Below, piece after piece: positions 8,950-59,316 of a DNA stretch of 64,000 nucleotides; position 1 is the stretch's first letter; every line of letters begins with the position of its first letter. The notes below the pieces were generated by a model. The model had not been told where the DNA came from, ran no database searches, and saw only the letters and a list, made by a program, of their open reading frames with translations. The DNA comes from Oceanipulchritudo sp. (GTDB lineage Bacteria; Verrucomicrobiota; Verrucomicrobiia; Opitutales; Oceanipulchritudinaceae). The stretch lies in contig JBNGDP010000001.1 of NCBI GenBank assembly GCA_049975345.1, positions 32,907-96,906 of the forward strand, read 5' to 3'. The translations under genes and the position numbers were made by a program.

Positions 8950-11466
<2,517 letters not shown>

Positions 11467-17939: not shown

Positions 17940-18700
17940 CCCAGATCCTGCGTCTTACCCTTCATGAGCTGAAGAGCCTGTTTTACGCCCCGAGCACCTA
18001 CATCGCCATGGTCCTCTCCCTGCTCATGATGGGGTTCTTTTATTTCATGACCCTGCTGACGGTAAGCGCCGAGGAACAGGACCAGTTGCCCCCCACGCTC
18101 TTTTTCAGTCTTTTCTGGGTTCCGGTCCTGCTCATTGTCCCGATGCTCACCATGCGCAGTTTCGCCGAGGAACGCCGCCTCGGGACCATCGAGACCCTGC
18201 TGACAGCCCCCGTCAACCCCTCCCAGCTTGTTGTTTCCAAATTCCTCGCAGCCTACTGCTTTTATGTTCTGGTGTGGGGTCTTTCCATCGCTTTCCCGGC
18301 CATTACCTCCTTTTCCCTCCAGCAACCGGAGTTGCACGCGCGCCTCTTCCATGGAGGGGCCATGACCGGCGGGTTCCTCTTCATCGCCCTCTCCGGCTGC
18401 CTCTTCGTCTCCATCGGGATCTTCACCAGCAGCCTGACGCGCAGCCAGTTGGTCGCCGGCATGCTTTCCTTCAGCATCCTCTTCATGCTCATTGTCGGAA
18501 TCGCGGCCATCCACATGCTTCAGCAGGAATTGAGCACCGGCACGCTCCTCTCCGACACGGTTCTCGACTACTTCCAGATTTTCGATCACTTTGACGATTT
18601 CAGCCGGGGCCTCGTGGACACCCGGCCCTTCGCCTATTACCTTTCCGGAACCGTGGCCATCCTTGGTCTTGCCGTCCTTGTCCTCGAAACCAAACGATGA
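17936..18700 (+). CDS. ABC-2 permease (GldF-like)
   Basis: Six TM segments; TMRSFAEERRLGTIETLLTAPV; overlaps both neighbours by 4 bp. Confidence 0.88.
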   Translation: MTQILRLTLHELKSLFYAPSTYIAMVLSLLMMGFFYFMTLLTVSAEEQDQLPPTLFFSLFWVPVLLIVPMLTMRSFAEERRLGTIETLLTAPVNPSQLVVSKFLAAYCFYVLVWGLSIAFPAITSFSLQQPELHARLFHGGAMTGGFLFIALSGCLFVSIGIFTSSLTRSQLVAGMLSFSILFMLIVGIAAIHMLQQELSTGTLLSDTVLDYFQIFDHFDDFSRGLVDTRPFAYYLSGTVAILGLAVLVLETKR

Positions 18701-20181
18701 TCAAGATGTCCAAGTGGGAATCCTACCAGTTCGCAAACCGCCTGAAGTTCCTCAACAACTGCCTGCAGGTGCTGCTCATTTTCTCGCTGATTTTCGGCCT
18801 CAACTATCTGGCCATGCATCAGTTTCACCGCTTCGACCTGACGGAAAACCACCGTTACGCCCTCTCCCCGGAAACCCGGGCCTATATCCAGGAGCTCCCC
18901 GGCCCGATCCGGATCATCGTCACCATTCCCGGCGATTCCCCCCGGCAGGAGGAACAGGTCCTGTACCGCTATGTCAGCCAGCTCCTTCAGGAATACGTCT
19001 ACCAAAGCCGCAGGTCGGGACGCTTTCTCATCGAGGTTGAATACGTCGACATCTACAAGGACCTGGTTCGGGCGGATTTCCTCGCGCGCACCCACGGGCT
19101 CGACCAGCCGGATTCCCTTCTTGTCCTTTCCGGCGAGCGCCAGCGGCTGATCCGGGCCGATGAACTCCTCTCCTTCGCGAACCTGCGGCCGGTGACCTTC
19201 AACGGGGAATCCACTCTCACCTCGGCCATCATGGAGGTGACCCAGGAACAGTCCCCGAAAATCTACTTCCTCCAGGGCCATCAGGAGGTGGAACCCTCCG
19301 ATCCCTCGCCCCAGTTCGGTCTTTCCCATGTCACAAGGGAACTGCAGCTGCGCAATTTCACCATCGCCCGGCTGGATCTCACCAGTATCCCCGAAGTGCC
19401 CGGGGATGCTTCCGCCCTCGTCATCGCGGATCCCAAAGGCCCCCTCCTGACCTCCGAACTCGACAAGATCCGCAGCTACCTCTCCGACCGCGCCGGCCGC
19501 GTCCTGATCTGGGTGCGCCCGGGCGTGGAGACCGGCCTCCATCCCCTCATCGCCGAATGGGGGATCCGCCTCTCCGACCAGGTCGTCATAGAGCCCGATC
19601 CCGGATTCCGCGAAGCCAAGGGCACCCTCCTGGTCCGCAACTTCGGCGAACACCCCATCACCGAATCCCTCATCGAAAACAAGACCTTCCTCCTCTCGGG
19701 GTGGGTCCGCCCGGTCTTCCCGGTGCCCCCGCAGCCGGCGGATGAACGCCTCAGCTTCATCCCCCTTTTCGCCACCTCCCCCGAAAGCTGGGCGGAATCC
19801 TCCTACCAGACCGGCGCCGTCCCCTCCTTTGATCCCGGGGCCGATTTCAAGGGACCCGTCCCCATCGCCATCGCCGCCGAACGCAAGGCCTCCAGCCAGC
19901 TCGGGATCCGCGTCCCGGGCGGCCGGATCGTCGTCTTCGGGTCCGCCGATCTCTTCGCCAACCAGAACATCGCCTCCCTCGGAAATGTGAACCTCTTCTT
20001 CAATACCCTCAACTGGATGCTGGACCGGGACCGCTTTCTCATCATCCCACCGCGCCCGGTGGACTCCTACAAGCTCGCCCTCAGCCGGGACCAACTCCAG
20101 CAACTCGGCCTCCTCTTCCTCATCGTCCCGGGATCCGTCGCCGTGATGGGCCTGCTCGTTCACTGGATCCGCATCTCCTGA
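18697..20181 (+). CDS. GldG-like ABC auxiliary component
   Basis: N-terminal TM, RFDLTENHRYALSPET, IYFLQGHQE, RIVVFGSADLFAN, NVNLFFNTLNWM, C-terminal TM. Confidence 0.82.
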   Translation: MIKMSKWESYQFANRLKFLNNCLQVLLIFSLIFGLNYLAMHQFHRFDLTENHRYALSPETRAYIQELPGPIRIIVTIPGDSPRQEEQVLYRYVSQLLQEYVYQSRRSGRFLIEVEYVDIYKDLVRADFLARTHGLDQPDSLLVLSGERQRLIRADELLSFANLRPVTFNGESTLTSAIMEVTQEQSPKIYFLQGHQEVEPSDPSPQFGLSHVTRELQLRNFTIARLDLTSIPEVPGDASALVIADPKGPLLTSELDKIRSYLSDRAGRVLIWVRPGVETGLHPLIAEWGIRLSDQVVIEPDPGFREAKGTLLVRNFGEHPITESLIENKTFLLSGWVRPVFPVPPQPADERLSFIPLFATSPESWAESSYQTGAVPSFDPGADFKGPVPIAIAAERKASSQLGIRVPGGRIVVFGSADLFANQNIASLGNVNLFFNTLNWMLDRDRFLIIPPRPVDSYKLALSRDQLQQLGLLFLIVPGSVAVMGLLVHWIRIS

Positions 20182-21500
20182 TTTCCCGCCATGCGCTTCA
20201 AACTGACCATCCTCCTCCTTACCCTGAATGTCGCCCTCTTCGGCCTCATCTTCTACATCGACAAGGTCCGCAGCACCCGCAGCCTCTACGATTCCGATAC
20301 CCGCCTCATCCTCGATCCCCTTTTCCTCCAGGGTCTCGATAAAATCGAGATCGCCAGCTCCAACAGCGATATCCGCTGGGAATTCGATAAAGAGGGCGCT
20401 CAAACCTGGCTTGTCCGCTCCCCCATTCACTGGAAAGCCAATCCCTACGCCATCCAGCAGCTCCTCTTTCAACTCAAAACCCTCGCCTGGGAGTCCCGCT
20501 TCCCTGTCAGCCAGCTTCCCCAGGCCGGCCAGTCCCTCGAATCCTACGACCTCGAAGCTCCGCCGCTGCGCATCACTCTCCATAACGGCGCTTCCTCCCT
20601 CCCTCTCCAGCTCGGGGCCCCCACCGAAATCGGCAACCGCCTCTACATGATGTCACCGGATGGTGAATATATATTGGTGATTTCCCGTGGGCTACTGGAA
20701 ATCCTGCAGCGGGAGATGGAATCCTTTCTGGACAAGCGGATCTTCGGTCTGGGGATCGAGGAGAGCCGCGTGATCCAGATCCAGGACCGGTCGGCGAGCA
20801 ACGTACGGGTGCGGCTGGAGCGGGGCCGGGAAGGGTGGCGATTCATCTCCCCGATTGAAGCGCCGGGAGACACGGAACGGGTGGAGGCGATGATTCGGGA
20901 GTGGCAGGGAATGGAAGTGGAATGGGCGGAGGAGAGGCCGGTCTTGGATCCGGGCCTGGAAGGGAATGCGATCCGGTTGACCTTTGAAGGGCTGAACGAG
21001 CGGGAGACGCTGATCCTTGCCCCGACGGCGCTGGAAGGGGAGACCTTCCACCTGGCGAAGCGGGAGGCCTACGGGGCGGTCTTCAAGGTCGGGGCGGAGC
21101 ATGTGGAGCGGTTGCAGAACGCCCAGGAGGAGCTTCGGGAAAAGCGGATTCTGCATCAGCACGCAGCGGACTGGACCAGTTTGAAGATTGAATTCGGGGA
21201 ATTGAGCACGACGCTACAGCAGCTGGAAAGCGGTGAATGGCAGGTTCTGTACACGAGTCCGGGCGAAGGGCTGAGGACCCTGCCTGCGGATTCGAAGGCG
21301 ATCGAGGAGGTGCGGACCCTGGTCCGGACGATGGAGGCGGTCCGCTTTGTCAGCGACGCCCCCTCGGAGAACGATCTGATCCGCTACGGTCTGGACCAGC
21401 CGCAGCGGAGGATCAGCCTGCGAAAGGCATCGGGGGCCGGCATCGAGTTGCGGATCGGGGGAGTGAGTTCCGAGGGCGAGGGAACCCTTCTGTACGGGAC
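19100..21500. other. Strand-composition flip no. 1 (C-rich to G-rich on + strand), centre about 20650-20680
   Basis: Hand counts: 20581-20640 29 C/12 G; 20881-20940 6 C/32 G. Arm limits are approximate. Confidence 0.85.
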
Positions 21501-22107
21501 AACGACCGAGTCGGCATCCGTATTCCTGTTGCGCCCCCATATTCTTGCCGGATTGCCGCTGGATCCGCTGCATTACCGGGAACGAACCATTTTCTCCCTG
21601 CCCGATCCGGCCGGGTTGGCGGATATCCGGCTGCTTGAAAGGGCCTCTGGGGCGGACCTGCTTTCCGGTGAGGTTCCCCCGGAAGCGGGTACCCTTGCCT
21701 CCATCCGGGAAACGCTTTCGGCGTACCTACACGCCGTGGAAGTGGAAAGTTACCTGGACAGCTTTTTCAGCGATCCCCTGAGGGCCGGGGGCGACCGATT
21801 GATCGAGTGGCCCTGGCTGCTCGAGGCCGATGTCACCCATTCCCAGGCTTCCACAACCGCGGAGGGAACGGAACAAAAGGTTCGTTTCCACATCTCCCGC
21901 CGCCTCGGAGGAACAACCCAGTATATCGGGGATCCTGCTTCGGGTCTGGTTGGCAAATTGCCTGTGGATATCATCGAGTGCCTTGATCCTTTGCTGGTGC
22001 GCTTCCCGGAGAACCCCGGCCCGCCGCCGGAGACCGGGGAACCCGCTTCCGCAACGGAGCCGGAAAAGGGGGAACAAGCCGTCATTGAATCCAACCCGGC
22101 CCCCTAG
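20191..22107 (+). CDS. DUF4340 domain-containing protein (repeated domains)
   Basis: N-terminal anchor; repeated YDL/YGLDQPQRRISL and LQLGAPT/LRIGGVS patterns; usual position after a GldG-like gene. Confidence 0.7.
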   Translation: MRFKLTILLLTLNVALFGLIFYIDKVRSTRSLYDSDTRLILDPLFLQGLDKIEIASSNSDIRWEFDKEGAQTWLVRSPIHWKANPYAIQQLLFQLKTLAWESRFPVSQLPQAGQSLESYDLEAPPLRITLHNGASSLPLQLGAPTEIGNRLYMMSPDGEYILVISRGLLEILQREMESFLDKRIFGLGIEESRVIQIQDRSASNVRVRLERGREGWRFISPIEAPGDTERVEAMIREWQGMEVEWAEERPVLDPGLEGNAIRLTFEGLNERETLILAPTALEGETFHLAKREAYGAVFKVGAEHVERLQNAQEELREKRILHQHAADWTSLKIEFGELSTTLQQLESGEWQVLYTSPGEGLRTLPADSKAIEEVRTLVRTMEAVRFVSDAPSENDLIRYGLDQPQRRISLRKASGAGIELRIGGVSSEGEGTLLYGTTTESASVFLLRPHILAGLPLDPLHYRERTIFSLPDPAGLADIRLLERASGADLLSGEVPPEAGTLASIRETLSAYLHAVEVESYLDSFFSDPLRAGGDRLIEWPWLLEADVTHSQASTTAEGTEQKVRFHISRRLGGTTQYIGDPASGLVGKLPVDIIECLDPLLVRFPENPGPPPETGEPASATEPEKGEQAVIESNPAP

Positions 22108-22113
22108 GAGTAC

Positions 22114-24816
22114 ATGCGTCCGCTCTTCCATTTCCGGAAAATTGCATGGAAGGGGGGCAGTTTCTTCTGCCACTGCCTGAATCTCGTTCTCGCCGCCCTG
22201 GCAATCGGACAGGGCGGCATGCTGGTCCTGAATCTTGTGCAACGGGAAATTCCCCTGCCCGACCGCTTGGCTAATTGGGCCCTCAACGAACTGGGGCCCG
22301 GCGGATTCCGTGCCAGCTGGTCCAGTGTTGTCTTCGACCTGCGGGGAGGGCTGCTCCTGGATGACTTCGTCCTTCAGGATGGCGGGACCGATGAAATCAT
22401 TCTCACCGCCCGGCAAACCCGGATGCAATGGGATCCCTTCAACCTTCTCGTCGCCGGAATCCCCCCTTTTTCCGAGGTCGAGGCCCGCATGGTCCGGATC
22501 TACATGCCCGCCAGCATTTCCCCCAGCGGTCTCAACGAACCCGCCCTCTTCGTCCAGAATGCGGAACTGAAGGAGGAGGAGGGACGTCTCCTGCTCTCCT
22601 CCCTTTCCGTCCAGACGGGGGGCCTCGAGCTTTTCATCAGCGGGTCCGCTCCCCTCGACCTTTTGATCGGAACGAAGCCTGCCACGGATGGAGTCAACCG
22701 GATTACCCTCTTGCAGAAACTCAACCAGCTGCCGCCCGACCTCCATGCCAGCGCCCTCGTCGAATGGGAAATGTCACCGGCACGAGAACACCAGTTTGTC
22801 ATCGAGGGAATCATCCCGCAATATCACTTCAGCGGAGCCGCTTTCCATGAATTGACCGGCAATGCCCGCCTCCTGCTTTCCCCCGGCGCCGCCCGTTTGG
22901 TCAACCTGCAACTGGACGGACGGATCGGGTCCCTGCCGGACTTCCCCGCTCTCCCCGCGTCCGTCAAAACCTTCATTTCCCATCCCGTCCCTTTCCACCT
23001 CCGGGCCGACGGCCCCCTCCAAAACTGGGGCTCTTTCAGCTTGCCGACAAGCGTGCGCCTGAGCCTCTATCCGCGTTCCCCCGCCCTCCCCGTCGACCAG
23101 CTGCATCTCGCCACCAACCTCTGGAACCCCTCCAACCCCGTGTTCTGGATCGCTTCCAGCCCCCGCCTTTTCGCCGCCGGAACCGCCCGCTTTCTGCCCG
23201 ATGCCCCGGGACCCCTTCCCCTCTCCCTCGCCTTTCGCGCCTCCCTGCCCAACCCTTCCCTCGTCCATTTTTTCAAGGGACCCCCGGTCGATTTCCGGCT
23301 CGAGAACCTTCAGGCCCGCCTTCTCCGCATTGAGGCCGCTTTCGATCCCCTTTCCCGGACCCTCGCCGGTTCCCTCCTCTGCGATTCCCTTCTTGTCGCT
23401 CATACCCCTTTCGCCCACCTGCACTCCCCCTTTTCCCTCCAGCCCCACTCCCTTTCCTTCCACCCCATCCGCGCCACAAAGGCCCATGATGAGTTCGCCT
23501 CCGGTTCCTATTTCCATCACCTCCCCTCCTCCCGCTTCTCCCTCCATGCCATTGGGCAGGTCTTCCCCGCCTCCCTCGATTCCCTCCTCGGTCAATGGTG
23601 GCCCAGCATCTTCGCCGATATCCAAACCCCCGCCCCCATCCCGGCAGATGTCACCGTTTGGGGACTCTGGCGGGAGGAAAACTCCCTGCAAAGCATGACG
23701 CGGGCATGGGGGCGCGGGGCGCGTTACCGGGGCGTGGAGGTACCGGAGCTGGAGGTACGGGTCCGCAGCAATGGGGAGTGGGCCTTTGTGGAGAAGCTGG
23801 AAGCGCGTTTCGGGGAGGGGAGCATACGGGGGCAGGTTGCGCTGCGGTCCAATCTGGAGGACAGCGAACCGTACCGTGCGGTGATCATCGACATGACGAG
23901 TGACGGGCCCTGGGAGGCCGTGGTGGGGGCGAGCGGCCTGGACGGACTGGGGCAGCTGGCTTTTACGGGGCGACCTCGTGCAGGGGCGAAAGGGACGGTC
24001 TGGCAGGACGCGGGCAATGGATTTGACAAGGAGGCGGTGGCGGATCTGGCGTTCAACCTGACGCAGGGGGAGGGAACCTGCACGTGGCAAGGCCTGACGA
24101 TGGAGGGGCTTTCCGCCACGGGCCAGGCCGTGGGTTCCTCGCTGGAGGTGAAGCGTCTGAGCGGACGGTTTGCGGAAGGCGTCTTCACCGGGGGCATGCG
24201 GGTGGAGGACTGGGAAAGGGAAGGGATGCGGCGGAAGGAATTTCAATTCCAGCTCTTTGACGCGCAGTACGGCGAGGCCATGCGTCAATTGACGGGGCTT
24301 CTGGAGGATCCCGAAGCGGTGCGGGAATCGCTGTTGGGCGGAGCGGACAGGGGCCGTCTGGACACCTCGATCCGGATGGCCACGGGTGGGGCCGTGGGAA
24401 AGGCTGTGGGGGAAGGGTGGGTCTGGCTGCGGGATGCGCAGGTGGGGGAGATCCACCTGCTTGGAGGGCTTTCCCGTTTTCTTGACCGGATGGGGCTTGA
24501 TTTCAGCAGTCTGGACCTGAACGCGGCAACCCTGGAATGGAAGCTGGCGGAGGGCATCCTGAGCATAGAGAAGGGGTTGGTAACCGGTCCGGCGCTCGCG
24601 ATGGAACTTTCAGGATTCGCGGACCTTGCGAGCAAAAACCTGGCCCTTGGGGCGGAAGTCACGCTCTTCAGCGGATTCATGGGCAAACTGCTCTCCCCGG
24701 TGAGCGAAACCCTGAACTTCGACCTGACGGGACCGCTGGACCAGCCAAGCTGGCAGGTGCGCCTGAGGCCATTGCGCTGGTTCCAGAACCGCCTGAACAG
24801 GGTCCCCATGCCCTGA
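22114..24816 (+). CDS. AsmA-like family protein (AsmA_2-type C-terminal region)
   Basis: 900 aa, single N-terminal TM, beta-rich; C-terminus LEWKLAEGILSIEKGLVTGPALAMELSGFADL...FDLTGPLDQPSW is typical of AsmA-like ends. Confidence 0.65.
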   Translation: MRPLFHFRKIAWKGGSFFCHCLNLVLAALAIGQGGMLVLNLVQREIPLPDRLANWALNELGPGGFRASWSSVVFDLRGGLLLDDFVLQDGGTDEIILTARQTRMQWDPFNLLVAGIPPFSEVEARMVRIYMPASISPSGLNEPALFVQNAELKEEEGRLLLSSLSVQTGGLELFISGSAPLDLLIGTKPATDGVNRITLLQKLNQLPPDLHASALVEWEMSPAREHQFVIEGIIPQYHFSGAAFHELTGNARLLLSPGAARLVNLQLDGRIGSLPDFPALPASVKTFISHPVPFHLRADGPLQNWGSFSLPTSVRLSLYPRSPALPVDQLHLATNLWNPSNPVFWIASSPRLFAAGTARFLPDAPGPLPLSLAFRASLPNPSLVHFFKGPPVDFRLENLQARLLRIEAAFDPLSRTLAGSLLCDSLLVAHTPFAHLHSPFSLQPHSLSFHPIRATKAHDEFASGSYFHHLPSSRFSLHAIGQVFPASLDSLLGQWWPSIFADIQTPAPIPADVTVWGLWREENSLQSMTRAWGRGARYRGVEVPELEVRVRSNGEWAFVEKLEARFGEGSIRGQVALRSNLEDSEPYRAVIIDMTSDGPWEAVVGASGLDGLGQLAFTGRPRAGAKGTVWQDAGNGFDKEAVADLAFNLTQGEGTCTWQGLTMEGLSATGQAVGSSLEVKRLSGRFAEGVFTGGMRVEDWEREGMRRKEFQFQLFDAQYGEAMRQLTGLLEDPEAVRESLLGGADRGRLDTSIRMATGGAVGKAVGEGWVWLRDAQVGEIHLLGGLSRFLDRMGLDFSSLDLNAATLEWKLAEGILSIEKGLVTGPALAMELSGFADLASKNLALGAEVTLFSGFMGKLLSPVSETLNFDLTGPLDQPSWQVRLRPLRWFQNRLNRVPMP

Positions 24817-25100
24817 GAAAAGGCGGGCCTTCAGTGGAAGCGGATTTCAATTGCCCTCGGCGGACAAAAGTTATCAGACTGCCCGCCACAATGGAATCAA
24901 CAGAGGAGGAGAGCCTTGGAAATCAAAGAGATTAAAGCGATTGTCGACCTCATGAAGCGGTCGGGACTGACGGAGTTCCAGCTGGAAGAGAAGGATTTCA
25001 AGCTGAAGATCTGCCGGAAGAGCGATGAAGTGCAGACCATTTACCAGGCGGCGACGCCGGCGCCGTTTCCGGTGACACCGCCGCCGGTCCCCACGGCGTC
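22900..25100. other. Strand-composition flip no. 2 (C-rich to G-rich on + strand), centre about 23645-23690
   Basis: Hand counts: 23401-23460 34 C/3 G; 23701-23760 13 C/33 G. Arm limits are approximate. Confidence 0.9.
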
Positions 25101-57722: not shown

Positions 57723-58484
57723 TCAGATCGAGGGATCGAACCACTGCAGCGTTTCACCAAGTCGGGCCACTTCGCCGATAATGACCACCGCGGGCGCCCC
57801 CAGGCCCGCTTCCTTCACCCGCCAGGCAATGTCAGCGAGGGTCCCCCGCACCGATTTCTGCCGGGGTGTCGTTCCCCACTCCACCACGCTGGCCGGCGTC
57901 CCCGCCGCGCGCCCTCCGTCAACCAACCTCCGGCAAATCTCCTCCAGCCGCCCCATCGACATGTACAGCACCAGCGTCGCCCCGCTGCGCGCGTGCGCCT
58001 CCCAGTCCACCATGCTCTCCCCCTTGTCCGGTTGCTCGTGCCCGGATATGAACGTCACCGCGCTGCTCCATTCCCGGTGGGTCAACGGGATCCCGCAGTA
58101 GGCCGCGCATCCGAGCGCCGCCGTCACCGCCGGTACCACTTCATACCGGATCCCCGCCCGCCGCAGCGCCTCCGCCTCCTCCCCGCCCCGGCCGAATATG
58201 AACGGGTCCCCGCCCTTCAGACGCACCACCCGCCGACCCCTCCCTGCCAGCGCGATCAATAACTCCACGATCTTCTCCTGAACGATGCTGTGAAAGCCCG
58301 AACGCTTCCCCACATAGTGCAGCTCACACCCCTCCTTCACCCAGCCCTTCATCCGCTCGTCCACCAGGTAGTCGTACACAAGATCGTCACACTTCCCGAT
58401 CAGCTCCCGCCCTTTCACCGTGATCAGGTCCGGATCCCCCGGACCCGCCCCCACCAGATAGACTGCTCCCTGCGCCTCCTTCAT
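57723..58484 (-). CDS. cobA: Uroporphyrinogen-III C-methyltransferase (SUMT/CysG-A)
   Basis: [55 protein letters not shown]. Confidence 0.95.
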
Positions 58485-58593
58485 CGCCTCCCCCTATTCC
58501 CTACCCCCACTCCCGCCTGCCTGTCGATGCCCCTTTTATGGATTTTTGCTTGTCAAAACAAAGTTAATCAATAGTTCATTACCTAATATTGTC

Positions 58594-59316
58594 ATGATTA
58601 CGGGAAAAACAAGGGAAAAAAGGACTGTGGCGGGCTGGCTGGAGGGGCTGGGGGCGGAAGAGCGTGTGGCGTGGGCTCTGGAGCGGTACGGGGAAAGGCT
58701 GGCGCTGTCGACGAGTTTCGGGGGGCAATCGGCGGTGATGCTGCATCTGGTGACGCGGCTGAGGAGGGACATCCCGGTGATATTCGTGGACACGGGATAT
58801 TTGTTTGCGGAGACGTACCGGTATGCGGAGGAGATGCGGGAGCGGTTATCGCTGAACCTGAAGGTGGTGACCCCCTTGTGGAGTGCGGCGCGGCAGGAGG
58901 CGGTGCACGGGAGGCGCTGGGAGCAGGGGCTGGAGGGGCTGGAAGGCTACAACCGGGACAACAAGGTGGAGCCGATGAACCGGGCGCTGAAGGAACTGGG
59001 GGCGGAAGCCTGGCTGAGCGGGCTGCGGAGGAGCCAGTCCCGGTCGCGGGCGGAGTTACCGGTGGTGCAGAAGCAGAACCGGACGGTGAAGATCCACCCC
59101 ATTGTGGACTGGACGGAGAAGCAGGCCTACGCGTACATGCGGGAACACGGGCTCCCGTTCCACCCGCTCTGGGAAAAGGGGTATGTCAGCATCGGGGACT
59201 GGCACAGCACGAGGCCCCTCGCGGAGGGGATGAGCGAGGAGGAAACCCGCTTCGGTGGTCTGAAGCGGGAATGCGGGCTGCACGAAGGCAGCGGACAGGC
59301 CGACTGGCAGATCTGA
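58594..59316 (+). CDS. cysH: Phosphoadenylyl-sulfate (PAPS) reductase
   Basis: [28 protein letters not shown] (no CC pair), SGLRR, PIVDW, GYVSIGD, ECGLH. Confidence 0.93.

Follow-up and report, generated by a model that had tools for sequence, protein, structure and literature searches.

When strand asymmetry is seen locally in a bacterial genome, it is as a rule ascribed to replication acting on whole replichores, with a small term added by gene orientation. Around bidirectional eukaryotic CpG-island promoters, with their R-loop-prone 5' ends, the GC skew changes sign sharply where initiation occurs, G enrichment of the non-template strand extends ~1-2 kb downstream, the upstream side mirrors it where transcription is divergent, and the signal decays gradually (Ginno et al. 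2013, PMC3787257; PMC4617957). Bidirectional promoters are widespread in bacteria (PMC12825309, PMC10268837). Rho, in turn, requires a C>G skew of the transcript together with YC dimers, and its utilisation (rut) sites are 'C>G bubbles' of ~60-80 nt in untranslated RNA (PMC6144790). Finally, codon usage depends on position within genes (PMC4069614), and the cheaper C/U are preferred in transcripts (PMC4844684).

The locus described here lies in a window of 64 kb (the whole stretch of 64,000 nucleotides that was analysed) from the 4.06-Mb genome, G000, of an uncultured Opitutales-type bacterium. Within one conserved gene of this window, for a predicted membrane protein, the coding strand turns abruptly from C-rich to G-rich. 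In this switch, flip 2, the relative usage of G and C genuinely reverses at the nucleotide level about a single anchoring site in the gene; it is a rare mid-gene case in a class of ~100 switches otherwise found at gene starts. It resembles the CpG-island promoter skew in all the respects named above; however, the setting is bacterial, the skew is much stronger (up to ±0.8 at four-fold sites), the switch lies inside translated genes and alters their residues, and both the initiation site and the R-loop are putative here. With the strand asymmetry of replication (ori/ter) it shares an origin-type polarity, independence of gene orientation and visibility at silent sites, and in one congener (G007) the same pure G/C signature is seen at replichore scale. 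An ori/ter switch, though, occurs once or twice per replicon and bounds domains of hundreds of kb, whereas here dozens of sites, three of them in 64 kb, reach 1-3 kb and are tied to gene boundaries. The left arm of the switch is, like a Rho 'C>G bubble', a C-rich, G-poor and pyrimidine-rich transcript, although a very long one, and the right arm is the opposite; but 1-3 kb of translated gene are involved, with a putative role, and the likeness extends to composition (C 0.68 at four-fold sites, ~71% pyrimidine) and the presence of Rho. Positional codon usage and cheap C/U account for the genome baseline (C3 > G3, T > A) and for a mild 5'->3' gradient that resets at start codons. From neither would one expect a reset within a gene, positive skews of +0.6 to +0.8 or a surplus of C immediately ahead of the reset; where such gradients are of small amplitude and reset at start codons, the reset of the four-fold-site skew here falls on codon 510 of the 900, with a change from -0.66 to +0.46 (300 codons per side), or ~1.1 units in one gene.

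Table 1. Coordinates of the flips and of the features associated with them (window positions, except for C96).
Feature	Position	Strand	Basis or remark
'AsmA-like' gene holding flip 2, intact, 900 codons	22114..24816	+	ORF, orthologues, AlphaFold model
Left arm of flip 2, C- and T-rich coding strand	22400..23645	+	Skew profiles
Transition zone of flip 2	23627..23718		Refined change point, codon alignment of 12 congeners
9-mer ATGTCACCG	23648..23656	+	Also at flip 1 (20650-20658) and C96 (~10484)
Right arm of flip 2, G-rich coding strand	23645..25100	+	Skew profiles
DUF4340 gene with flip 1 (centre ~20643)	20191..22107	+	Pfam DUF4340 match spans flip
Flip 3, at divergent cobA/cysH-type gene pair	57723..59316 (centre ~58500-58545)		Jump 0.87
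Third mid-gene flip	G000 C96, ~10484		Skew profile

An earlier note on this DNA had given the base counts across flip 2 as 34C/3G at 23401-23460 and 13C/33G at 23701-23760, and counting by hand returned exactly these figures. In 300-nt windows the GC skew goes from -0.45/-0.52 over 23250-23699 to +0.36 over 23700-23999, with the refined change point at ~23642. The gene contains the most negative and most C-rich of the 18,724 coding-strand windows of 300 nt in the genome. The centre falls on the codons of a conserved motif, P-A-D-V-T-V-W-G (D512 at 23647-23649, G517 at 23662-23664), in which D512, V513, V515, W516 and G517 are invariant columns of the 12-congener codon alignment, and a 19-nt imperfect inverted repeat (23627-45 / 23700-18) spans the change point. 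Not one of 500 within-gene synonymous shuffles, a control that the note had proposed, matched the observed jump (0.87 versus ~0.53 ± 0.06), which exceeds them by 5.8 SD. The change points also agree with the note in placing flip 2 at 3.0 kb from flip 1 and in giving flips 1, 2 and 3 the same polarity.

The gene that holds flip 2 is, judging from its reading frame and its orthologues, real and unbroken across the flip, and both peptides quoted in the note, the P/S/L/F/H-rich and the G/E/R/V/W-rich one, are found in its 900-aa ORF. Orthologues in 11 genomes of the same genus are colinear over residues 1-895, at 33-44% identity and with no stops. A wrong gene call or an antisense gene was rejected as the source of the pattern, as Pfam backs genes on the + strand and none of the long ORFs on the - strand, and the orthologues are colinear. 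AsmA-like, TamB and YhdP lipid-transfer proteins combine an N-terminal membrane anchor with a long continuous beta groove and match a family profile; the AlphaFold model (pLDDT 74) predicts a transmembrane helix at residues 5-42 followed by beta strands as far as residue 883. The sole Pfam match is a faint one to YhdP (E = 0.22), and Foldseek matches the model to LptD, ApoB and TamB with TM scores that are low (0.1-0.25).

The left arm falls to a GC skew of -0.52 and an AT skew of -0.42 at its lowest; its four-fold sites hold C at 0.68 and G at 0.15 (binned four-fold skew -0.3 to -0.93), and the pyrimidine share of its transcript given above is a hand estimate from the skews. The right arm (GC skew +0.27 to +0.37; G 0.58 and C 0.22 at four-fold sites) takes in the 3' half of the gene, a 99-nt spacer and the initial 60-75 codons of accB, where a four-fold skew of +0.49 to +0.62 bears out the claim that G-ending codons persist into that gene. 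The flip is two-armed, as had been proposed, and the arms of such switches cross gene boundaries and disregard the reading frame. At flip 1 the arms extend left to ~17850 and right to ~21700, and the observed jump of 0.69 compares with 0.33 ± 0.06 after synonymous shuffling. Flip 3 represents the common version of this switch, which lies between genes; at the 5' end, each gene of its pair has a four-fold skew of +0.6 to +0.8.

Across the genome, 113 GC3 jumps of at least 0.7 point upward and 10 downward, and among whole-sequence jumps that reach 0.6 the tally is 21 upward and none downward; upward jumps in the 4.06 Mb amount to 44 in the whole sequence and 113 in GC3. With gene coordinates outside the window taken from our own crude gene caller, 109 of the 113 upward GC3 jumps are no farther than 300 nt from a gene boundary, in most cases where a transcription unit begins, and three flips only are truly mid-gene. 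Strong G3-rich 5' ends are found in 10.5% of the genes with a divergent upstream neighbour versus 1.3% of tightly coupled (operon) genes, an eight-fold difference. Transcription-unit starts therefore seem to be the usual anchor, and by our own gene calls they coincide with the centres of the class as a whole. The suggestion of the earlier note that an undescribed system may be at work, as something separate, gains no support from this survey, in which the same kind of switch recurs at ~100 sites, nearly always at gene boundaries and with an excess of divergent neighbours.

The switches have a common shape, in which the strands running outward 5'->3' are G-rich and slightly purine-rich for ~1-3 kb, with a sharp edge at the centre and a gradual outward decay; strongly G3-rich windows are located in the initial 100-300 codons of genes. 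The extreme class is two-armed, in that upstream 3' ends stand at -0.40 versus ~-0.19 and divergent partners at +0.20 versus ~0. Genes with the top G-rich 5' ends are largely presumably weakly expressed ones, for example five LacI-type regulators, priA and hrpB, and highly expressed genes (ribosomal proteins, rpoBC, groEL) are C3-rich. A 5'->3' rise in C-ending codons was found in 78% of genes and resets at every gene start, even within the ribosomal-protein operon.

In base composition the switch amounts to G traded for C, with a slight purine/pyrimidine component. Genome-wide, T drops and A holds as G rises, A and T are flat along genes, and A+T at four-fold sites is lower in both extremes of skew; all eight codon families and every neighbour context show the same shift. 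Such uniformity is compatible in equal measure with selection on bulk composition and with mutation. The switches do not carry the signature of deamination (G+T versus C+A on the non-template strand): a hand calculation with C-to-T deamination fits the right arm, but the genome-wide fall of T with the rise of G contradicts it, and the purine/pyrimidine-like behaviour of A and T likewise speaks against deamination of an exposed strand.

In the congeners G004, G005, G008, G007 and possibly G009 the flip 2 codons carry a four-fold flip too, though a weaker one, and since these are identical codons, the force is anchored to the site, as the note had claimed. Protein identity to the first four is just 37-44%, which means that substitutions at silent sites have reached saturation and that the force has to be still at work. 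Over 12 species, which as congeners are not independent data points, the silent jump at flip 2 tracks the amino-acid-implied jump there with a rho of 0.86 and the flip 1 jump with a rho of 0.83, which again points to a site-anchored force acting on nucleotides. Distant Opitutales orthologues have no consistent flip. Scans of genome contigs and metagenomes with the flip 2 protein yielded no close relative for polarising substitutions, the nearest protein being 47% identical.

Of the readings considered, the best, though a tentative one, is that an asymmetry radiates from an intragenic, promoter-like initiation site. Because switch centres normally lie at transcription-unit starts, especially divergent promoters, the mid-gene centres may be read as two-way initiation sites within genes. 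The most probable cause would be a substitution bias that differs between the strands and accompanies divergent transcription, or the opening of the strands, outward of the centre; it would trade G for C on the displaced strand, possibly reinforced as G-rich, C-poor transcripts escape Rho. This bias would be superimposed on a weaker compositional boundary in the protein that is already common to the genus, and the two together would move silent sites and weakly constrained residues. That a start site occupies the flip 2 centre, and that mutation rather than selection is at work, is what we infer from the pattern. Several observations run against this reading: A and T behave in a purine/pyrimidine-like way, the shift is as uniform as selection would make it, the G-rich 5' ends are largely in presumably weakly expressed genes, the skew at the C96 flip does not decay simply from its centre, and promoters were not matched. 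Consensus scans gave no sigma-70-like promoter at the centres and no sigma-54-like site near them, and the loose pattern TTGNNN-N15-18-TANNNT is absent at all three flips.

Selection on transcripts in relation to Rho, the main rival, would account for many of the same features, but is considered unlikely. It would keep the first ~1 kb after a transcription-unit start 'Rho-proof' and the RNA upstream Rho-sensitive, and would count most where a gene is poorly translated, or where RNA begins mid-gene and stays untranslated until the next start codon. Rho requires a C>G skew with YC dimers (PMC6144790); the skew seen here is of purine/pyrimidine type and uniform over codon families, and two homologues of Rho are encoded in the genome. 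First genes of transcription units, and genes that are presumably weakly translated (LacI-type regulators), have more than their share of G-rich 5' ends; the pattern is gene-specific and conserved between species, the 5' four-fold skew of orthologues correlating at r = 0.33-0.55. The right arms of flips 1 and 2 cover most of the distance to the next start codon (1.47 and 1.27 kb), and the loss of A+T from four-fold sites in both extremes is what stronger selection predicts. Such selection, however, offers no evident gain from keeping the sense message extremely rich in C for 1-3 kb within a translated gene, as in the left arms, whose antisense RNA would moreover be Rho-resistant. It would need hundreds of sites of tiny effect and yet be strong enough to alter residues of a conserved protein, the C96 flip has no downstream gene in the sense direction, and both the start site and the terminator are hypothetical.

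A bolder reading, which we rate as rather improbable, is an undescribed strand-specific process, self-reinforcing or enzymatic, that would act from discrete sites in this Opitutales genus and rewrite each strand outward over ~1-3 kb, trading G for C, varying between species and in G000 strong enough to remodel conserved proteins. As a runaway loop, weak bidirectional initiation would yield G-rich transcripts that escape Rho, leading to more and longer transcription and a deeper bias; alternatively, nick-initiated repair synthesis with a C-to-G bias might be responsible.

Still more doubtful is a site-anchored process on DNA unrelated to transcription, the kind of reading that the earlier note had proposed, in which repair synthesis initiated at a nick or break, local replication restart or R-loop-primed synthesis would proceed outward with G/C-biased errors. 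The polarity is indeed origin-like, with G-rich outward 5'->3' strands, the rises are sharp and the declines gradual with almost no sharp downward jumps, and the arms pay no heed to reading frame or gene boundary. The replication-type skew of G007 (±0.28 at four-fold sites) is a pure G/C trade, and a DNA-level asymmetry in the clade thus bears the same signature. Furthermore, GATGTCACCG / ATGTCACCG is present at flips 1 and 2 and at C96, the 9-mer ATGTCACCG being common to all three mid-gene centres. A process blind to transcription would not, on the other hand, predict 109 of 113 centres at gene boundaries with divergent promoters preferred, and the centres, at least 44 in number with three within 64 kb, are not replication origins. 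As an anchor the shared motif was rejected: among the 57 copies of ATGTCACCG that were scored, a jump of 0.4 or more is seen at two, and the 54 scored copies other than those at the three mid-gene centres, one of them in the same gene, are free of a flip, so the 9-mer is not sufficient. The palindrome TCACC-N4-GGTGA fared no better, with a flip at one of its three copies. An unbiased scan of all 4-, 6- and 8-mers inside genes found no anchor, just the effect of each word's own base content (mean jump at most 0.036), and neither an abundant k-mer nor a palindrome has a flip in excess of that effect; motif anchoring of the HIP1 type does not apply here.

Least probable of all, and largely refuted as the sole cause of flip 2, is that no site-anchored process exists and that a variable P/S/L/F/H-rich middle region simply meets a conserved G/E/R/V/W-rich C-terminal one under ordinary positional codon usage. 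About 60% of the jump (~0.52 ± 0.06 of 0.87) outlasts synonymous shuffling and is therefore carried by the amino-acid sequence, the remainder being position-dependent codon choice. The amino-acid-implied jump in congeners is 0.04-0.31 at the same column, and roughly half of the amino-acid part is common to the genus. The centre falls on the most conserved motif, right after a short, low-confidence helical break at residues 481-509 of the model, and the rise in C-ending codons along most genes is in line with the known positional codon usage (PMC4069614). A boundary in the protein does not, though, explain why four-fold sites move by so much within one gene or why amino-acid and silent jumps co-vary across species. 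Both halves of the modelled protein have the same beta-strand fold and orthologues from other genera have no amino-acid jump, and thus protein structure alone is insufficient for the flip. Four-fold skew is, in addition, nearly uncorrelated genome-wide with position-1 and position-2 skew (r = -0.09 and 0.13), which indicates that codon choice is not simply following residue composition. That the flip reshapes the protein was borne out by comparison with congeners, the G000 protein being raised in P, A, H, F and S on the left and in G, E, W, A and V on the right (z up to ~3).

Other candidates were rejected: an RNA element or giant hairpin (no Rfam match in the window; inverted repeats scattered, not nested around the centre), a replication origin or inversion (too many sites; gene order kept in 11 congeners), mosaic import by recombination (which predicts sharp edges of both signs, seen upward only), 'coherent skew' selection, in which silent sites follow residues and mRNA folds less (correlations just the two given above), and an assembly artefact (site density independent of contig size; flips common to congeners).

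The two-armed, kilobase-scale switches of this genome thus occupy discrete sites, recur at the same codons across species with saturated silent sites and are strong enough to change the composition of a conserved protein. Should mutation be their cause, the sites would report naturally on a process of G/C transversion that is strongly strand-biased and linked to initiation sites; should it be selection, sensitivity to a termination factor would shape codon choice, and even protein sequence, over kilobases. Either cause would open a sequence-only route to active initiation sites, intragenic ones included, in uncultured bacteria. Such regions can also mislead analyses of codon usage, horizontal transfer and gene calling, because long antisense 'shadow' ORFs arise in the arms.

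Direct base counts in the window returned exactly the figures given in the earlier note for an abrupt change in the AsmA-like gene from a C-rich to a G-rich coding strand (34 C and 3 G in 23401-23460; 13 C and 33 G in 23701-23760), and both peptides quoted there are present in the 900-residue open reading frame. In 300-nt windows the GC skew of this flip 2 stays at −0.45 to −0.52 until 23699 and is +0.36 starting at 23700, and the AT skew lies between −0.2 and −0.42 to its left and near 0 to its right. The left, C-rich arm contains the most negative coding-strand 300-nt window of the source genome (−0.52; n = 18,724, mean −0.015, SD 0.10). Flip 1 indeed lies 3.0 kb upstream, and flips 1, 2 and 3 share one polarity, all being upward, from C-rich to G-rich on the plus strand. 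When synonymous codons were shuffled within the gene (500 replicates) as a control for flips 1 and 2, the jump at the same position went from 0.87 to 0.52 ± 0.06 at flip 2, with none of the 500 shuffles attaining 0.87, and from 0.69 to 0.28 ± 0.06 at flip 1. Since 0.52 of 0.87 is kept, about 60% of flip 2 resides in the amino-acid sequence and the remainder in position-dependent codon choice. Four-fold degenerate sites carry C at 0.68 and G at 0.15 in the left arm, and G at 0.58 and C at 0.22 in the right arm, a skew going from −0.66 to +0.46 (300 codons on each side).

Coordinates of the flips and of associated features (window positions unless a contig, C, of the source genome or of congener G007 is named)
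Feature	Location	Strand	Detail
Flip 1, change point	~20643		in DUF4340 gene
Flip 2, refined change point	~23642		in AsmA-like gene
Flip 3	~58500		at divergent cobA/cysH-type pair
Third mid-gene upward jump	C96:10483-10542		
GT4-type glycosyltransferase gene	C96:10204-11385	−	flip at about codon 300 of 394
AsmA-like open reading frame	22114-24816	+	
Antisense open reading frame	18637-20583	−	648 aa
Antisense open reading frame	22774-24456	−	560 aa
9-mer ATGTCACCG	20650-20658		flip 1
9-mer ATGTCACCG	23648-23656		flip 2
9-mer ATGTCACCG	C96, ~10484-10492		third mid-gene flip
AT palindrome AATATATATT	20666-20675		flip 1 centre
Sulphur-assimilation or related genes with G-ending 5′ ends	C114:702-2405; C15:25071-25979; C17:11228-12196; C8:5181-8870; 57723-59316		
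Rho homologue	C11:30841-32916	−	692 aa
Rho homologue	C27:14380-15513	+	378 aa
Replichore-type skew	G007:C121:1-260000		

Comparison of the locus among relatives shows that the host gene is real: its orthologues in 11 same-genus genomes are colinear over residues 1-895, 33-44% identical and stop-free, the order gldA-like, gldF, gldG, DUF4340, AsmA-like is kept at all 11 congener loci, and accB and accC come next wherever the contig extends far enough. The nearest relative found for the protein is 47% identical. Pfam matches back the plus-strand genes upstream, the DUF4340 match covering flip 1. The two long antisense frames, which are rich in G, E and D, are without Pfam support and are shadow frames, which the NNC periodicity of codons in the C-rich arms keeps free of stops; such frames could be mistaken for genes in annotation. 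An AlphaFold model (9 sequences, pLDDT 74) predicts a transmembrane helix (residues 5-42) and, from there as far as residue 883, beta strands throughout. With a weak Pfam match to YhdP (E = 0.22) and Foldseek matches to LptD, ApoB and TamB at TM scores of 0.1-0.25, the AsmA-like identity is plausible only, on weak profile and fold evidence. The source assembly, in which the window is C1:32907-96906, comprises 4.06 Mb in 233 contigs with 61% G+C; judged by AccC, its closest named relatives are Puniceicoccales/Opitutales metagenome-assembled genomes, several of which bear names that indicate a saline or soda lake origin.

Projection of the four-fold sites of 12 species onto the protein coordinates of the source genome revealed weaker upward jumps at the same two codon positions in five congeners: G004 (0.63 at flip 1, 0.47 at flip 2), G005 (0.49, 0.51), G008 (0.81, 0.32), G007 (0.36, 0.29, on a very negative baseline) and, marginally, G009 (0.30, 0.22). 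The remaining congeners of the set had no four-fold jump at flip 2, and more distant Opitutales orthologues no consistent flip. Because silent sites are saturated at 37-44% protein identity, the shared silent pattern implies an ongoing site-anchored force that differs in strength between lineages. In the set of 12 species, the size of the silent jump at flip 2 follows both the amino-acid-implied jump (Spearman 0.86; 0.81 minus the source genome) and the silent jump at flip 1 (0.83; 0.78), correlations whose P values overstate the evidence, the species being related and the comparisons phylogenetically non-independent. The amino-acid-implied jump at the DVTVWG column, for which residues were scored by genome-average codon content, is 0.38-0.49 in the source genome, 0.04-0.31 in the 11 congeners and close to 0 in seven orthologues outside the genus. 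Relative to congeners, the source protein is enriched in P, A, H, F and S to the left of flip 2, and to the right is enriched in G, E, A, W and V and depleted in H, S, P and I, with z reaching about 3. These shifts bear out the reshaping of the protein claimed in the earlier note, but the compositional boundary partly predates the source genome. With both halves predicted as beta strand, fold class does not account for the shift.

Beyond the window, genes were called with a crude custom caller (2,713 genes, 84% of the source genome). Whole-sequence jumps of at least 0.5 numbered 44 upward versus 7 downward, and those of at least 0.6 numbered 21 versus 0. When synonymous codons were shuffled in all genes, the 44 jumps of at least 0.5 dropped by half, to about 21. 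Third codon positions gave 113 upward and 10 downward jumps of 0.7 or more, with all four gene-orientation contexts represented; a gene boundary lay within 300 nt of 109 of the 113 (random 60%) and within 60 nt of 84 (random 13%). One of the four apparent mid-gene exceptions, on C116, was rejected as a start-codon miscall at a divergent promoter, and the truly mid-gene upward jumps are three, flips 1 and 2 and that on C96. In the last, the C-rich arm runs over a convergent gene boundary into the adjoining plus-strand gene.

Part of the up/down asymmetry is trivial, arising from C3 preference and a within-gene gradient. The source genome prefers C over G at third positions (four-fold C 0.47, G 0.38), and four-fold skew runs along its genes from about 0 at the 5′ end to −0.25 at the 3′ end (C 0.38 to 0.52, G 0.42 to 0.31, A and T flat). 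The gradient, seen in 78% of genes above 300 codons and restarting at every start codon, the ribosomal-protein operon on C56 included, is ordinary position-dependent codon usage, of a known kind (PMC4069614); C/U preference in transcripts is likewise known (PMC4844684). Since C3 preference rises along genes, a convergent boundary by default produces an upward jump. What is not trivial is a subset of windows strongly rich in G3 (222 of 10,015, with four-fold skew above 0.45), almost confined to the first 100-300 codons of genes. Such windows are present in 10.5% of genes whose upstream neighbour is divergent, in 3.6% of co-directional genes with a gap above 100 nt, and in 1.3% where the gap is at most 20 nt. 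In this extreme class the far side of the centre is also shifted, since both upstream co-directional 3′ ends (mean skew −0.40 versus the usual −0.19 or so) and divergent partners (+0.20 versus about 0) are displaced. Jump-site density is independent of contig size. Orthologues correlate with the source genome in 5′ four-fold skew (r = 0.55 in G005, 0.35 in G007 and 0.33 in congener G001) and in within-gene gradient (0.35, 0.24 and 0.27, the last not significant), and lower-amplitude versions of the genome-wide features occur in the sampled congeners and in other families.

It is established that a site-anchored, two-armed force acts at the nucleotide level, as the earlier note proposed, that it is conserved in place and variable in strength between species, and that the usual home of the flip 2 class is the transcription-unit start. 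The nearest described parallel is the GC skew that flanks bidirectional promoters of eukaryotes (PMC3787257), and such promoters are common in bacteria too (PMC12825309, PMC10268837). Because of this usual home and the promoter-skew parallel, flip 2 may tentatively be read as an intragenic initiation-type site from which strand asymmetry would radiate outward, a reading to which we give somewhat less than even weight.

The asymmetry itself possibly originates in mutation, consistent with the remodelled residues, with mirror-image left arms of no evident use and with the identical signature of the very strong replichore-type skew in G007, where four-fold skew is about ±0.28 and almost purely G/C (coding skew +0.03 for plus-strand and −0.52 for minus-strand genes, A/T component nearly nil). 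A selective origin is also possible, in which G-rich transcripts would be Rho-proof beside Rho-sensitive C-rich ones (PMC6144790); in its favour are the purine/pyrimidine character of the skew, its sameness in every context, the loss of A+T in both extremes and the gene classes involved. The shift trades G for C uniformly in all eight four-fold codon families and whichever base follows, and codon positions 1 and 2 move a little the same way. With rising G, T drops from 0.095 to 0.053 and A is steady; with rising C, A drops from 0.071 to 0.036, so the skew is of purine/pyrimidine type; four-fold A+T is lower in both extremes. A cytosine deamination signature (G+T versus C+A) is contradicted by the fall of T with A steady as G rises. 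The most G-rich 5′ ends include, as named from sequence, five LacI-type regulators, a response regulator, priA and hrpB, and the sulphur-assimilation or related cysI, cysH, cysD, cysK, cobA and metH; highly expressed genes are C3-rich. The cobA orthologue in G007 is strongly G3-rich (+0.62 versus a genome median of −0.23). Two Rho homologues are encoded, each with an ATPase domain and a Rho RNA-binding domain match below the Pfam cut-off, the larger with a charged N-terminal extension of about 260 residues (K-, R-, G- and E-rich) and the other compact. A transcription-independent repair or synthesis process at the centres is improbable; such a process would not predict that the flips are tied to gene starts. 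For flip 2, where silent sites jump as well, a cause at the protein level alone is largely excluded.

A TGTCAA/TTGACA hexamer lies close to many intergenic centres (10 cases against 1.1 expected). No sigma-70-like site, sigma-54-like site, Rfam family or nested inverted repeat was found at the mid-gene centres, and an unbiased k-mer scan of the source genome gave no anchoring motif. Flips 1 and 2 are centred on the peptide motifs most conserved in their respective proteins, GAPTEIGNRLYMMSPDGEY and PADVTVWG. All three mid-gene flips carry the 9-mer ATGTCACCG followed by NNNGGNNA in the same orientation, and at flip 1 the 9-mer belongs to TCACC-GGAT-GGTGA, a perfect palindrome. None of the 54 further genome copies of the 9-mer that were scored has a flip, and its presence at the three is either coincidence or a piece of a larger signal that escaped detection. 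Exactly on the flip 1 centre lies AATATATATT, a perfect AT palindrome in the rare codons GAA TAT ATA TTG; in a codon alignment by eye, a TANNNT hexamer, absent from most non-flippers, occupies this spot in congeners that flip at flip 1.
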